Assembly (NCBI GenBank): GCA_963843555.1
Contig: CAWJKV010000012.1
Coordinates: 32,001 to 96,000, forward strand
Direction of reading: 5' to 3'
DNA length: 64,000 nucleotides
Source: an uncultured Methanosarcinales archaeon
GTDB lineage: Archaea > Halobacteriota > Methanosarcinia > Methanotrichales > Methanotrichaceae
Shown here one piece after another: positions 36,001-45,000 of this stretch. The first letter of the stretch is position 1; each line of letters opens with the position of its first letter. The position numbers were made by a program.

Positions 36001-39000
36001 GGATGAGGCAATTATTTCCGCCTTTCGCCTGGCATCGGCCACTGCTTTGGCCAGGGCCTCGTCCTTCTGTGGTCCTGAATCCTTCAGGCCATAGCTCACG
36101 CTCTTCAAGTTGTTGGACCCGGCTGCTATGGCGGCCCCCAGGATCTTGCCAATGTCTTCAGTGGTATTCATCTTTACTATGACGCTGCTGATGGCTACAT
36201 ACTCTGGAGACTGTTCCACTCCTGCCAGAGCTTTTATCAACTCCTCATCTCCATAGGGCATGGTGAGTCGGAACTGGCTGGTCTGAATCTCATCCTCTCT
36301 CAAGCCCGCCGACAATAGTGCTTTCACCGTTTTGTTCATGAGTTTTGCATTCTCTGCTGCAGCGACATCAGAGCTGATGTTCTTTGTCTCAACACCCAGT
36401 TCGATGGTCACCAAATCAGGAGGCACGGTTACCTCGCCGCTCCCATCCACAATCAGATTGGAGACATCCTCATTTGTAATCCCATATCCTGGTAGGGCCG
36501 ACATTATCAGTATTAGCCCTAAAGAACATAATTCTTGATCGTCTCATAATATCTCCACTATAATACCTAACTTTAACACTATTAAGTATTATGTTTGCTT
36601 GCAGCGGAGTATGCTATTTGACTGTCCAAATATCAGGATTCTTTCTTGCCTGTTACTGCAGTAGTAAATCAAAAATATTTTTATGAGATGGCCAGAAGCG
36701 AATCGCTTTATTTCTCGATCCACTTCCCATCCTTCTTCAGCCAATCGTCCATATCAGCTGCCGCGATCTTGCCTTCGCCCATGGCGCTGATCACAGTTGC
36801 GCCGCCGCTGATGATGTCTCCTCCGGCCCAGACGCCCTCCATTGTCGTTCTCCCCCGTCCATCCACCACCAGCGTGCCCCATTTGGTGGTCATGAGCTGG
36901 GGAGTGCTGGAGGCGATGAGGGGATTGGGAACTGTGCCGACAGCAATGACCACCGTGTCCACATCCACAGTATGCTCCGAGCCCTTCTTCACCCGGGGGC
37001 TTCTCCGGCCTGAGGCATCGGGCTCGCCCAGCTCCATCTCAACCACCTCCATGGCCTTGACCATGCCCCTATCGTCGCCTGAGAACCGGGTGGGATTGGT
37101 GAGGAAGTCGAAGATCACCCCCTCCTCCATGGCGTTCTCCACCTCTTCCAGACGGGCAGGCATCTCCTCACGAGAGCGTCGGTAAATGACATGCACCTCA
37201 TCCGCTCCCAGGCGCATAGCAGAGCGGGCGGCATCCATGGCCACGTTTCCGCCTCCGACGACGGCCACCTTCTTGCCCTTTTTTATGGGCGTATCGTATT
37301 CCGGGAACTTGTAGGCCTTCATCAGGTTGACCCGGGTGAGATATTCGTTGGCAGAGTAAACGCCGCTCAGGTTCTCGCCGGGAACATTTAGAAAGCGGGG
37401 CGCGCCTGCGCCGATGCCCAGGAATACTGCGTTATAGCCACCTTTGAGCAGCTCCTCCACCTGGATTTGTCTGCCCACCACAGAGTCAAGCTCCAGGTCG
37501 GCGCCCAGGGATTTGACGTACTCGATCTCCGACTTGACAATGTTCTTGGGCAGGCGAAACTCGGGAATGCCGTAGACCAGGACGCCTCCGCCATCATGCA
37601 GCGCCTCGAAGATGGTGACTTTGTGGCCCATTCTGGCCAGATCGGCTGCACAAGTGAGGCCAGCTGGGCCCGAGCCGACGACTGCGACGCGTTTGCCGGA
37701 GGGAGGGGCAACTTCACATACAGGGCACTTTTTCGTGGTCTGCTCCCAGTCGGCCACATAGCGTTCCAGACGGCCTATGGCCACAGGCGCCCCCTTCTTG
37801 GCCAGGATGCAGCGGCTCTCGCACTGCACCTCCTGGGGACAGACCCGGCCGCAGATTCCGGGCAGGCTGTTCTTTCTCTTGAGGGACAGGGCCGCCTCAG
37901 GCATATCCCCGTCCCGCAGGGCGCGAATGAAGACCGGAATCTCCACTCCCACCGGACAGCCTGCAACGCACTTGGGCTTCTTGCATTGAAGACATCTGCC
38001 AGCCTCTTCTGCCGCCTGCTCTGGACTGTATCCCAGGGCAACCTCCTGGAAGTTGCGTTTCCTCTTCTCGGGAGATTGCTTGGGCATCTCCACCCGGCTT
38101 AAATTTATCTTGCTTGACATCTCTTCTGCACCGCGCCTCTGTGGCTAAATTATCTTATTGCTGATTATACTTATGCTCGGAGAACCCTGGATGTCTCCTT
38201 TCCATACATCTTTTCCAGATCCTGTGCCCTCAGACGGACCTGCAGATATAAATAAGATAATGCCTGTCGCGGGCTTCCTTGAAGAAGCATTTAAATCTAT
38301 CCCTAGAAGATGGCTGACCCAGAACATTTTCCGACGAGGCACACCGTTTTGGAACTCTGCCGGTGATTCCTTTTAGAGGAACGTTCTAATACAACCAATC
38401 CTCATCATTATTCGGCGCGGTTGGAAACATGTCCGAGATTAAACTGACCATCGATGATCGAGAAATCCTGGTTCAGGAGGGTTCCACGATTCTGGAAGCA
38501 GCCCGCAAGGCCGGCTCTTAGTGCCAGCACTTTGCCACCACCCAGACCTCAAGCCCATCGGCTCCTGCAAGCTGTGCATCGTCTCTGTAAAAGGCCTGGA
38601 CCATTACCCCGCAGCCTGCAATACCCAGGCGGAAGAGGGAATGGTGGTGGAGACCAGGACAGAAGAGCTACAGGAGATGAGAAGACACACCCTGGAGATG
38701 CTCTTAGCCCTTACCAACCATCCCACCAGCTGCCTGTTCTGTGATAGGAAAGACGAATGCAATGACCTGCGCGAGTGCATGAGAAAGTTCCCTGTGACGG
38801 TAGGCTGCAAGTACTGCCCCAAGAACGGCGAATGCGAACTGCAGCAGGCAGTGGAGTTCGTGGGGCTGGAAAAAATCAGATATCAGATCTCTTTTAAAAA
38901 TATGCCCGTCTTTGAGAGAGCCTTTCTTCGATCGCAATTACAATCTCTGCATCCTGTGCAGCCGTTGCGTGCGAGCCTGCCAGGAGGTGAGGGGCGAAGG

Positions 39001-42000: not shown

Positions 42001-45000
42001 CATAAGCTGATGGACAGCAAAACCAAGAAGAGCTTCAATCCGGCAAAGAGAAGGACTGCAGCCGAGCTGGAACATCATGAGGGCCACAGCCACGGTGGCT
42101 GCAGCTCCGCCGGGGCCTGAACTGCTTTTCCGGCGGATCCAAGCGGCCGCCAGAATGAAGAATCTTGCAGCTTGAATGAAGATTAAATCAAGGAATGCAG
42201 ACTGCCGGGGGCTGGACTTGCATATAGAAGAGTTTCTCACGGGCGTGCTCAAGCGTCACGCCCCTGCCCAATCATGAGACCCATTGCTGCCTTCCTGAAA
42301 TATTCGATTCTAAATAAGATGAAGTTCTATTTTTCCGTCCATAGAAACTTTTCATGATTCTTTTTATTTTACATTATGCTTCAAATGGATTCATAATTTT
42401 TCACAATATTTCATAATTCTTCATAACTTTTCACAATTCTGCTGACTGCAACCGCAATCCTTTTACACAATTCCGCCAGCACGAGTGGCCATCCTGCGGG
42501 CCGCCTTCGAAGCAAAGCGATTTGGTTCATCCAGTCCCCAAACAAGCTTCAATCGCAAGAATTCCAGGCTGCCCGTTTTAATGGAGGGAGAATATGGCAT
42601 TCAAAATCCCCGCTGATATCGCCAAGGCAGCGATCGCTGCCGGATGCACGAAATGCAACATAACCTGGCAAAAGCTGCTGGTGCTGGGCTTTCTGGCCGG
42701 AGCTTACATCGCCTTCGGAGCCCTGTTGAGCGAGATCGTGGCTGGAGGCCTGTCCAACGGCACGATCACAGGTCCTGATGGCGCCATCTGGAAGATCGCT
42801 CTGCCGGCAGGCCTCGTAAAGTTCGCAGCGGGTGCAGTGTTCCCTGTGGGACTCATGCTGGTAGTGATTGCCGGCTCTGAACTCTTCACGGGAAACTGCA
42901 TGTTCGCACCCATAAGCGTACTGAACGGAGAGGCTCCCATCAAGGGTCTTCTTAAGAACTGGTCAATCGTCTATCTGGGCAACTTCCTGGGATCTATCTT
43001 CGTGGCCTATTTCCTGGCATACCAGTGCGGATTTTTCGATAGCCTTCCCTGGGCGGGCTGGGCGGCGACTGTGGCCAACACCAAATGCGGCCTGGACTTT
43101 GGCACTGCATTCCTGCGGGGAATAGGCTGCAACTGGCTGGTCTGCCTGGCGGTCTGGCTGGCCATAAGCTCGGAAGATGTGATAAGCAAGATCTTCGCCT
43201 GCTGGTTCCCTATCATGGCATTCGTCGCCATCGGCTTCGAGCACAGTGTGGCTAATATGTTCTTCATACCTCTGGGCATCTTTGCCGCCAACGATCCGGC
43301 CATTGCATCCAATCTGGCCACTGCGGGTGTGGCTACTGCAAACCTCGCCGGCGGCGTGGGATGGTACAATTTCTTCGTCACCAATCTCATTCCCGTCACA
43401 CTGGGCAACATCGTGGGGGCGGCACTCTTCGTGGCTGCACTCTACTGGTATGTCTACCTCCGGGGACCTCTTTGCGTGCATGAGCCCCGAGAAGACCACG
43501 AAGAAGTAACTGCCCAGACAAAAATTAGGATCGGCGCCTCCAGGCAAGAGGCCCCGAGCATTTCCTATTCGTCTTTTTCGTTCCTCGTATTTTTCAGGCG
43601 GATATGTTCATCTCGCTGGATCTGGGAGCATAACCTGCCAGCTCCATATAACCGATGCCGATCTGCTTACCGGTATGGTTCTCCTCCCGTATTCGCATAA
43701 TCCCTTCCCAGTACTTCACTTCACCATCTGCCACATTCATGGTCTGCTCGTCGAAGTATGGCTCCAGGGCAAATCTGCCTGCAGGGGTGTTGATGACCCA
43801 TTCCAGTGGGTACTTGAATCCGAACAGGTCCGATGTCCACCATCTGGATGCTGTCAAGTTGGCGGCATCGTCTCCCGCCCACCAGGTCGCATTGCCAAGA
43901 GAGTCGATATAAGTCAGGCCGCGCATACTTGGTATATCCTTCAGTGAGGGGTCCTTGAGGTTATAGAGCATCACATAGCTGCCATTATCAAGACGCATGC
44001 TGAACCAATCCCAGGCAGGGAGACATCTTCCAAAGCCACCCCACTGATGATCAAACCAGCTATCACCACGAACCTTAATCTCCCGCCCATCAATGGTCAC
44101 TGTTCCTGTGGTATTCATGGCCGGATGGGAGTAGTAATAGGTCATTCCTGTCATGTTCTCTGCGTCTATCTTCTCGCAGGCCCCCATGGCGCTGACGCCC
44201 CCAGGCCGGTGCAGATAATAGCCCAGCTTGTCGTCAACCAGAGTCAGATTCAGGGATATGTTCTTTCCATGGCCGCCATCGTCTGATACATTTCCCGATG
44301 TGAGAATGTTCCAGGCATCCTGATCCTGCCAATAGGTAAGGTTGGTATGTGCATCCTGGTAGCGCCAATAGTCGCCTTTTATGCTGTCAGTGCCATTGGT
44401 GATCCCGGCCTGGTCAGGAAGAGTTGCATATCTGTAACGGGGATGCTGGCTGTTGTAGACATCGCTTATTGCAGCGTGATTTACGTATCCGATCAAACCA
44501 GGTTCGAGGTTTTGCTGGAAGAGGGTGTACTGAAATCCCAAGAGTTCGCCGGTCTTTATGTCGTTCAGGCCTCCTGTCCAGTAAAGCCATTCCACGAACA
44601 GCTCAGGGTCCTTAACAACAGATTGGGGCTGGTGGAGCAGATGGTCGGCGGGGAAATGGTATACGGTTTCAGCCTTTCCACTAATCACATCACCGAGTGG
44701 AGGCGAGCTGTTATTCAGTACCTGGCCTGTAGAATCAGCTAGCGTGAGAGGCACGAGCGCCATTATAAGGCCGCCGATCAGCAGCAGGACCAATATAGAA
44801 TGGAAGCATTTAATTCTTGATGTCATCATTTGCCCTCCAAGGGCTCAACTTCACTATAATAAAAAGTAGCACATATAGCTTTCGGAATAGGAAGATAGAT
44901 TTAAGGCGCTTACTTTGCCCGGGCTCCGGATAAGGAGGAAAGGGCCTCTATTGCAGCAGCCCTCAACTCAAGACGACACGCCAGCCGCAAGGTGTCGGCG

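Follow-up and report, generated by a model that had tools for sequence, protein, structure and literature searches.

Cluster Anatomy

Formate use by Methanothrix, a dominant methane producer, is disputed. In an uncultured archaeon of the Methanotrichaceae, a formate dehydrogenase gene lies beside genes for both subunits of the flavin-bifurcating enzyme NfnAB, for which NAD(H) is, to our knowledge, the one third substrate known. Do these genes encode one enzyme, and would such an enzyme bifurcate? The cluster occupies positions 36708-43700 of the window, i.e., the 64,000-nucleotide stretch of DNA analyzed here (C12:32001-96000). A preliminary description had named four genes, nfnB (divergent), fdhA, nfnA and a formate channel, and profile searches located all four. 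Below, the nfnA of this cluster and its kin are called variant nfnA, and fdhA refers to the gene of the cluster and its orthologs.

36708..38120, minus strand: nfnB, 470 aa; TIGR01316 above cut-off
38121..38428, no strand: divergent intergenic region of 308 bp between the starts of nfnB and fdhA
38429..38520, plus strand: start of fdhA, up to a 1-bp loss near 38521 (comparison with relatives)
38521..38910, plus strand: middle piece of the fdhA N-module, in a shifted frame; PF13510 and PF10588 (two stretches)
38719..38841, plus strand: duplicated motif HxxxCxxCx5C...GCxxCx5C, within the middle piece
38912..41179, plus strand: main ORF of fdhA; TIGR01591 at 835 bits, cut-off 666
41182..42120, plus strand: variant nfnA, small subunit, beginning 2 nt past the fdhA stop; NF004862 above cut-off
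42594..43700, plus strand: formate/nitrite (FNT) channel; TIGR00790 above cut-off

The nfnB at 36708..38120 is the sole one detected in this genome, which holds two nfnA; the canonical nfnA, which had been stated to lie elsewhere, stands alone on C2. AT-rich, TATA-like words are present in the divergent region (38121..38428), as found by regular expression alone without a chance control. The channel gene's frame exceeds that of two relatives by ~60 aa, perhaps because of another 3' frameshift.

The middle piece of fdhA carries the duplicated His/Cys motif as well as the ligands of the [2Fe-2S] cluster A1; the main ORF encodes 2[4Fe-4S] (A3/A4), the proximal [4Fe-4S] (A5) and the Mo/W-bisPGD domain. 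A protein of ~925 aa with a frameshifted start had been proposed. The frame is disrupted, but by two compensating 1-bp indels instead of one, a loss near 38521 and a gain near 38910 as judged against three relatives, and the span from the ATG at 38429 amounts to 916 codons, the same as in the genomes G001 and G019. In relatives, fdhA is intact (916-928 aa). The two indels, the stop present in the shifted frame and the failure to find a second active FdhA in this genome would fit a recent pseudogene, which would concern this strain alone and not the family. This is unlikely: the indels are single-base and compensating, one of them inside a T run, split genes recur in the assembly (3 of 31 test genes), a P-type ATPase in the window is likewise in three pieces, and the remaining residues are 89-91% identical to intact orthologs.

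The Formate Dehydrogenase Subunit

The active-site motifs of a formate dehydrogenase are found in FdhA: CARLCH with the Cys-His pair (39524), the Arg of PLRGQNN, and CPYCGVGC for the proximal [4Fe-4S]. The protein therefore probably oxidizes formate at a Mo/W site. No Pyr_redox domain was found in it by profile search. The duplicated motif is an insertion of ~22 residues that brings three extra invariant Cys, with a fourth in the loci described below as type II; H98, C102, C105, C111, C127, C130 and C136 are invariant in 30 of 30 alignment rows. It was not found in solved structures, the four best PDB matches showing two separate matches or a gap; the insert was searched with a narrow alignment, a broader insert-only one being too diverse. 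The ESM Atlas search returned generic DHODB_Fe-S clusters only. The tandem paralogs FdhX and FdhY are 84-86% identical over residues 1-238 and 51-52% identical beyond, a likeness of the N-terminal part that counts in favor of a complex of FdhA with both Nfn subunits.

The Two Nfn Subunits

Both Nfn subunits are homologous to those of NfnAB/NfnSL from T. maritima (4YLF) and P. furiosus (NfnI, 5JCA), with which they share the b-FAD Arg, the NADP Arg pair and all FeS ligands. The small subunit is 42-43% identical to its counterparts (TM 0.89-0.95); its model has the NfnA/FNR fold (TM 0.95 to 5JCA_S), and the [2Fe-2S] site is intact (DGTGMCGACR...CV). The NAD loops, on the contrary, are remodeled. 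The altered GCFG loop noted earlier is present (41497, Cys107), but it is only one of three: VESR (41572) places Glu/Asp at position 132 and HGCPF (41731) Cys at 186, whereas the canonical loops read GGGxG, G/A-x-R and GP-x-x-M. Among 36 distinct variant proteins (the set is defined by Cys107), Glu/Asp132, Cys186 and the [2Fe-2S] ligands are each found in 36; of 115 canonical NfnA, 112 have Gly/Ala at position 132 and 113 have Pro at 186. ERIPMG stands for ERxPxT, whose Thr lies at N5 of the a-FAD; this residue is Gly48 here and varies among the 36 (S17/T10/G9), as compared with Thr in 113 of 115 canonical proteins. A third candidate Cys (VTGC) was rejected, as it is Cys in just 12 of 36. The variant proteins form a single clade, set apart by a branch at 100/97. 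The loops of Cys107 and Cys186 presumably flank the nicotinamide site, their closeness in space being taken from knowledge of the FNR family, and the variant NfnA probably does not bind NAD(H).

NfnII/Xfn of P. furiosus (5VJ7) likewise combines a small-subunit paralog that makes no use of NAD(H), as predicted for the variant NfnA, with a canonical large subunit. However, its a-FAD potentials are crossed, its site is blocked by a loop and an Arg, and it has no partner enzyme; the variant NfnA is 33% identical to it, has another signature and is coupled or fused to a partner. In NfnII, changes round the a-FAD stop bifurcation, according to passages of PMC12506544.

In alignments with 4YLF_B (E 1e-169) and 5JCA_L, NfnB keeps RCLQC, CPQEVQC, EFRLP and YRRSR. 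Two [4Fe-4S] motifs (RCx2Cx4Cx3CPV and GRVCPQExQC), as defined in passages of PMC6405883, are present, and so is the N5 Arg of the bifurcating FAD (Arg189, corresponding to T. maritima Arg187). R189, R314 and R315, which include the NADP-binding Arg pair, are invariant in 31 NfnB rows. Judged by its sequence, NfnB is canonical, with all bifurcation hallmarks kept. The window's genus has a single nfnB in 41 of 43 genomes, usually beside two nfnA, so that NfnB probably serves the canonical NfnA as well. In genus g22, all 7 genomes hold one nfnB and one nfnA, the latter in the variant band by E-value.

Coupling and Fusion of the Subunits

Two types of loci were distinguished. Type II (active FdhA, variant NfnA, NfnB) occurs in Methanotrichaceae and Dehalococcoidia; in the latter, the three genes form one co-directional series (L143, L382, L389, L393, L395). 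Type I (BfuBC, a Mo-less A subunit, variant NfnA and NfnB) occurs in many bacterial phyla. The bacterial bfuBC-fdhA-nfnA-nfnB clusters described earlier thus exist, but their A partner is Mo-less, with formate dehydrogenase active-site motifs in 0 of 74. The BfuBC core is present at full length in 65 of 66 type I loci; among 76 type II loci, some of them on short contigs, bfuB was found in none and a channel gene in 49.

Compared with NfnAB/NfnSL, the system adds an FeS partner subunit that looks obligate, and its third substrate is predicted to be formate in place of NAD(H). The BfuA/NuoG-type A1-A5 module of FdhA is shared with Fdh-Bfu (HylABC-FdhF2, C. hydrogenoformans type 1), in which the A subunit accompanies a BfuBC core that is absent from type II. 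In Nfn-Bfu/Stn (8OH5, 9BOV, 9N5U), an NfnB-like domain sits inside BfuA and NfnA is lacking, whereas here nfnA and nfnB are separate genes. Bam-Bfu (benzoyl-CoA reductase, Bfu plus HdrA), a proposed tandem of two bifurcating modules, is a model for type I, except that the second module of type I is NfnAB. A BfuABC plus NfnAB type was not found in passages of section 5 of PMC9304861, whose Supplementary Table 1 could list type I clusters.

An FdhA-like gene was present at 8 of 9 variant nfnA loci versus 1 of 71 canonical ones, and in a second set, overlapping the first by three contigs, at 29 of 30 versus 2 of 48. In the reverse direction, of the 66 loci that carry the motif and extend far enough downstream, all 66 have variant nfnA, and nfnB was found at 57 of 57, the query having been built from type I members, so that the recovered loci are kin. 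Among 150 matches listed, at least seven full-length natural fusions of an A subunit to variant NfnA (P0003, 5, 7, 10, 19, 33, 52) and at least four partial ones were identified, falling in two subclades. In all fusions seen, the A subunit is Mo-less, none joining an active Fdh to NfnA, and it is fused to variant NfnA, never to NfnB.

Among the 87 genomes of the family with a completeness of 80% or more, an nfnA match at E<=1e-130 was obtained in 67; the variant gene lies directly behind the FdhA N-module in 57 of these, within 6.5 kb in 59, and away from fdhA in 8, some at contig ends. Another 19 have a mid-band match only, the bands being set by E-value and the motif itself read in fetched loci only. 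Orphan variant nfnA exist (L067, L218, L220), and the duplicated motif also adjoins canonical nfnA at L078 and L183.

The AlphaFold2 model of fusion P0003, folded without a control, has a pTM of 0.83 (~0.5 would be expected for independent domains by our own estimate) and a pLDDT of 84, with a 45-residue linker below 50. A Foldseek search with this model found no solved structure with both halves (best TMq 0.41). A complex prediction for the FdhA N-module (residues 1-240, G001), variant NfnA and NfnB gave no answer in either direction (score 0.16, mark 0.32), with unfolded controls and without the A5 domain, which the fusions retain. Inter-protein covariation over 112 pairs (Meff 58) gave a top z below 5, without regional signal. 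Because of the two-way coupling, the seven fusions, the two-domain fusion model and the genomes with variant NfnA as their only NfnA, FdhA, variant NfnA and NfnB are considered to form one dedicated complex, with a probability of about 0.8.

Alternatively, FdhA could partner HdrABC or the BfuBC encoded on C7, the nfn genes being only neighbors of related purpose. BfuB is a docking partner for N-modules of this kind, and in G005, G076 and G021, fdhA precedes hdrA-ferredoxins-hdrCB, an order read as an expressed Fdh-Hdr in passages of PMC7382037. However, this holds for only 3 of 19 inspected loci, and hdrABC of the window's genome lies on C3 without fdhA. The pairing with C7, considered earlier, is weakened by the separate A subunit of bfuCB there, with an FrhB-like part matching F420-Bfu in passages of PMC9304861. 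With the fusions and the two-way coupling both indicating NfnA, such partners are very unlikely.

Relation to Formate Dehydrogenases of Methanogens

The operon Mthe_0913-0915 of Methanothrix thermoacetophila (fdhA, an FAD 'ferredoxin reductase', fdhA; supplement of PMC10470525) has the same order as L213 and L375, matched by gene order and annotation alone. In passages of that paper, it is expressed on acetate and in DIET and read as F420-linked, NfnB not being connected. The claim that the cluster was undescribed therefore stands in part: a complex described as Fdh-Nfn was not found in the literature searched, the scope of which ended short of older subscription papers on Methanothrix enzymes, but a same-order operon has been discussed. 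The supplementary RPKM values place the flavoprotein gene at 0.9-2.2x the median versus 4.4-7.3x for fdhA, which counts against an Fdh-Nfn complex.

An F420-reducing formate dehydrogenase of FdhA and variant NfnA, as that supplement proposes, is conceivable insofar as a remodeled NAD site could accept another hydride carrier. F420-dependent FdhAB and Fdh-Hdr of methanogens have, as here, a Cys-type Mo/W FdhA and an adjacent formate channel, but their FdhA is short, their FdhB is of the FrhB type, and they lack both a NuoG-type N-module and Nfn. The neighbor of fdhA here has the NfnA/FNR fold and not that of FrhB, and the genome has a separate fdhAB with an FrhB-type FdhB on C7/C16. The same NfnA variant also extends across many bacterial phyla, for most of which we know of no F420 use. 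All this makes F420 reduction highly improbable.

Proposed Mechanism and Energetics

The three proteins of the proposed complex would act as one cytoplasmic enzyme, with formate oxidized at the Mo/W site. Electrons would run from A5 over A4/A3 to A2 and an extra cluster at the duplicated motif, and from there through the remodeled NAD pocket of NfnA, with its two new Cys, to the a-FAD, the Asp-ligated [2Fe-2S] and the bifurcating FAD of NfnB. Formate would replace NADH on the high-potential arm, ferredoxin serving the low-potential arm, in the reversible reaction formate + 2 Fd(red) + 2 NADP+ = CO2 + 2 Fd(ox) + 2 NADPH. Trace formate would enter by the adjacent channel, growth on formate not being required, and for an acetoclastic methanogen, the ferredoxin cost per NADPH would be halved. 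Fno, another NADPH route, is also encoded in this genome.

Formate at 2.5 uM equals 4.5 Pa H2, according to passages of PMC7382037, and in-situ formate was computed at about -280 mV, matching NADH. Direct reduction of NADP+ by such formate was computed at +17 to +19 kJ, as against -10 to -12 kJ at standard state; coupling to Fd gives -4 to -8 kJ at -500 mV and +2 to +12 kJ at -450 or -420 mV. From standard potentials, bifurcation would seem pointless; with in-situ formate, this view no longer holds. Since in-situ formate alone cannot reduce NADP+, confurcation with reduced ferredoxin fits best. Thus, of the Fdh-Nfn complex first proposed, the complex is supported by coupling, fusions and model; bifurcation is plausible, because NfnB is canonical and the in-situ energetics need a second, low-potential donor, with the precedent of NfnII pointing the other way. 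Formate-linked flavin bifurcation by this complex is an even proposition.

The same three proteins might instead form a non-bifurcating formate:NADP+ or Fd:NADP+ oxidoreductase, FdhA feeding the [4Fe-4S] arm of NfnB or the b-FAD uncoupled and NfnA serving as scaffold, as in NfnII. In favor of this, NfnII does not bifurcate, and with Fd as donor its large subunit reduces NADP+ by itself; variant NfnA has lost the a-FAD Thr and the NAD loops; and standard-state formate would suffice. The unfavorable direct reaction at in-situ formate, the fusion of the A subunit to NfnA and not NfnB, and the two invariant Cys with an intact [2Fe-2S], which suggest a working NfnA arm, make this improbable. It has very little probability that FdhA replaces ferredoxin on the low-potential arm while Cys107/Cys186 pass high-potential electrons to a thiol/disulfide or other acceptor: two invariant Cys do stand at loops flanking the nicotinamide site, but no Hdr-type gene was seen to go with the loci (hdrA was found at none of the 76 of type II), nor was a thioredoxin-type gene, for which no search was made, and in-situ formate is not a low-potential donor.

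Significance

The variant NfnA could represent an undescribed plug-in class of NfnAB whose NAD site has turned into an electron port fed by a protein, perhaps by way of a new cluster that the duplicated motif's spare Cys and Cys107/Cys186 would bridge. It would serve formate/ferredoxin/NADP bifurcation in Methanotrichaceae and Dehalococcoidia, and double bifurcation by a tandem of Bfu core and NfnAB across many phyla of uncultured bacteria, in Thorarchaeota and in other Methanotrichaceae. This broad reading is tentative. If true, an NfnAB supplied with electrons by another enzyme would broaden the bifurcating family that is most abundant. It would also settle, for a paralog other than NfnII, whether NAD can give way to an oxidoreductase, as has been asked for NfnII; from the type I form, a widespread tandem of Bfu and Nfn is to be expected. 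The predicted activity is 2 NADPH per formate, strictly Fd-dependent, and the family includes cultured hosts. The formate dehydrogenases that Methanothrix expresses would then have a testable role, formate being a source or sink of electrons for anabolism and not a growth substrate.

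Organization of the Cluster

The preliminary description placed an Fdh-Nfn cluster at window positions 36708..43700 (the window being C12:32001-96000), and all four genes were found there.

36708-38120, minus strand: nfnB, divergent from fdhA
38429 (ATG) to 41179, plus strand: fdhA (fdhA*, the variant with a duplicated FeS motif)

The gap between the fdhA stop and the nfnA* start is 2 nt, and an FNT channel gene lies 473 nt beyond nfnA*. The frameshifted start described for fdhA is real: compared with three relatives, one base is missing near 38521 and one is additional near 38910. 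The proposed length of ~925 aa has to be corrected to a span of 916 codons, the same as in intact orthologs. The indels are likely an assembly error, since 3 of 31 test genes of this genome are split. A P-type ATPase gene (window 17424-20021, minus strand), broken over at least three frames, is likewise a sign of indel errors. Close homologs are found in records named Methanothrix or Methanotrichaceae. The window also holds a Family 1 encapsulin gene (PF04454; 14030-15223, minus strand), preceded by a ferritin/rubrerythrin-like cargo gene, and two archaeal Nre-family DNA repair genes (21764-22792, minus; 49294-50478, plus), each near a radical SAM gene.

The Subunits

NfnB is canonical: in the alignment, its FeS motifs, N5 arginine and NADP arginines, hallmarks taken from PMC6405883, match 4YLF and 5JCA. 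The NfnA* model has the NfnA fold (pLDDT 89, TM 0.95 to 5JCA_S), and the Asp/Cys3 site is retained. The GCFG change noticed earlier is present, but it is just one among three altered loops. The first reads GC[FY]G; Glu/Asp132 (36/36) stands where canonical NfnA has Gly/Ala (112/115), and Cys186 (36/36) where it has Pro (113/115). The Thr at the a-FAD, the flavin of NfnA, is variable. Judged by its residues, NfnA*-NfnB is a variant of the NfnAB kind that falls outside canonical NfnAB, because the NAD loops do not match. In a midpoint-rooted tree of 60 rows hand-picked from the fetched loci, the 35 starred rows, fusions included, form one side of a branch (100/97), within which the Fdh-linked NfnA* group with those of Dehalococcoidales and Desulfobacterales in a subclade (100/99). 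A tandem duplicate nfnA* follows a single fdhA* in L226 (family genome G055) and L392, and G054 likewise gave two matches. Canonical NfnA is extended at its N-terminus by a fused pyridine nucleotide-disulfide reductase domain in P0124 (613 aa) and P0051 (689 aa).

In FdhA*, the Cys-His Mo/W site is intact. The N-module is of the NuoG/BfuA type, with its His-ligated cluster motif duplicated; the duplicated motif as a whole has an invariant His and six Cys (30/30 rows), with a seventh Cys in type II, and the four best PDB alignments listed lack the duplication. In L393 and L395, YCSRECH surrounds the Mo ligand; upstream of their fdhA*-nfnA*-nfnB (about 1-4500) lie NfnB-like, weak HdrA-like and second NfnA-like genes.

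Two Architectures

An FdhA-like neighbour was found at 8/9 starred vs. 1/71 canonical nfnA loci in a first forward test and at 29/30 vs. 2/48 in a second. In the reverse test of 78 new loci, which are kin rather than independent draws, nfnA* was present at all 66 motif-bearing loci with room downstream, nfnB at 57/57 with room and bfuB upstream at 65/66; Cys/Sec-His was kept in none of the 74 scorable A subunits. The nfnA* cluster thus has two forms. Type I, bfuC-bfuB-A*(Mo-less)-nfnA*-nfnB, occurs in Zixibacteria, Aminicenantes, Ignavibacteria, Planctomycetota, Anaerolineae, Thorarchaeota and some Methanotrichaceae. Type II combines nfnB (53/76) and the channel (49/76), short contigs counted, with an active fdhA*, which lies directly upstream of nfnA* at 58 of the 64 loci that have room; bfuB occurs in 0/76. 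The cluster is family-wide, as had been proposed. In the family, 86 of 87 genomes at least 80% complete carry either the starred (E<=1e-130) or the mid nfnA band. G092, the only genome with neither, carries an nfnA-nfnB-fdhA series of another kind that lacks both the duplicated motif and GCFG. This second, independent series (L224, G092 C24:2513-9245; L225, G047 C104:1173-6130) encodes an NfnA that reads GGYG and has a Cys two positions past the GP loop, placed in the tree with canonical Dehalococcoidia NfnA, and an FdhA that has Cys-His and no duplicated motif.

Against the Fdh-Nfn proposal count the 8 of 67 genomes in which fdhA* is apart from nfnA*, the 3 of 19 loci examined in which it precedes hdrABC (an order interpreted as Fdh-Hdr in PMC7382037), the orphan nfnA* of L067, L218 and L220, and the occurrence in L078 and L183 of A subunits that carry the motif but adjoin a canonical nfnA. 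In these two Dehalococcoidia loci (L078:6242-10252, L183:4783-9142), the A subunit is fused to a GltD/NfnB-like domain immediately 5' of canonical nfnAB; in L078, the fusion gene lies behind bfuCB.

The studied genome has a single nfnB and, as described before, a solitary canonical nfnA (contig C2). It further carries four fdhA-like loci, F420-type fdhB (C7/C16), hdrABC (C3) and bfuCB with its own A/FrhB subunit (C7). It also encodes Fno, an alternative NADPH route that counts against the Fdh-Nfn proposal. Two similar blocks at contig starts (C7:2631-6551, C16:258-4141), by duplication or assembly overlap, consist of a split fdhA, fdhB and a pyrF-like gene.

Probable Contact between the Subunits

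A profile was searched against 1.84 billion representatives; among the 150 matches listed, seven are full-length A*-NfnA* fusions and four are partial ones. One of them, P0003, has lost the entire Mo domain; its AlphaFold2 prediction, a single model without a control fold, reached pTM 0.83 despite a disordered linker, from which we estimate that the two halves are placed relative to each other. The tandem paralogs FdhX and FdhY share 84-86% identity over the N-module and 51-52% beyond, a pattern that would fit either a docking region common to both or gene conversion. In genus g22 (7/7 genomes), NfnA* is the sole NfnA for one NfnB, which in G107 is encoded about 250 kb away. We consider an FdhA*-NfnA*-NfnB complex probable (roughly 0.8).

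The literature searched, including the available parts of PMC6405883, PMC9012536, PMC12072023, PMC12018979, PMC5861303, PMC7382037 and PMC12506544, yielded no description of Fdh-NfnAB or Bfu-NfnAB, nor was the Bfu-NfnAB type found in section 5 (parts 1-2 of 3) of PMC9304861, Supplementary Table 1 being outside the comparison. The earlier statement that the cluster is not described holds for the Fdh-Nfn reading; however, an operon arranged like L213 and L375, Mthe_0915-0914-0913 of M. thermoacetophila, is described as expressed and F420-linked (PMC10470525), the match covering gene order and annotation only. In M. thermoacetophila, the flavoprotein transcript is below that of fdhA, which counts against the Fdh-Nfn proposal.

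Energetics and Proposed Electron Flow

The standard potential of formate, -430 mV (PMC5861303), would allow NADP+ reduction without coupling at standard state. For digesters, an estimate puts the formate concentration at 2.5 uM, the equivalent of 4.5 Pa H2 (PMC7382037). We computed a potential of -280 mV from this, which coincides with the physiological potential given for NADH (PMC9304861). Direct NADP+ reduction by in-situ formate would then cost +17 to +19 kJ; for the confurcating sum we obtained -4 to -8 kJ with ferredoxin at -500 mV and +2 to +12 kJ at -450 or -420 mV. Like canonical Nfn, the reaction is near equilibrium. NfnII, which has the same pairing of a canonical large and an altered small subunit, is non-bifurcating (PMC12506544), and this precedent counts against bifurcation by NfnA*B. 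For formate-linked bifurcation by FdhA*-NfnA*-NfnB, we regard the chances as even.

In type I, BfuBC would supply the high-potential arm of NfnA*, a tandem that resembles the one of bifurcating modules proposed earlier for Bam-Bfu; BfuB is full length with a C-terminal 2[4Fe-4S] in all eight sequences read, that of C7 among them. In type II, FdhA* would supply electrons to this arm in place of NAD(H), and the energetics fit such an NAD-less high-potential arm.
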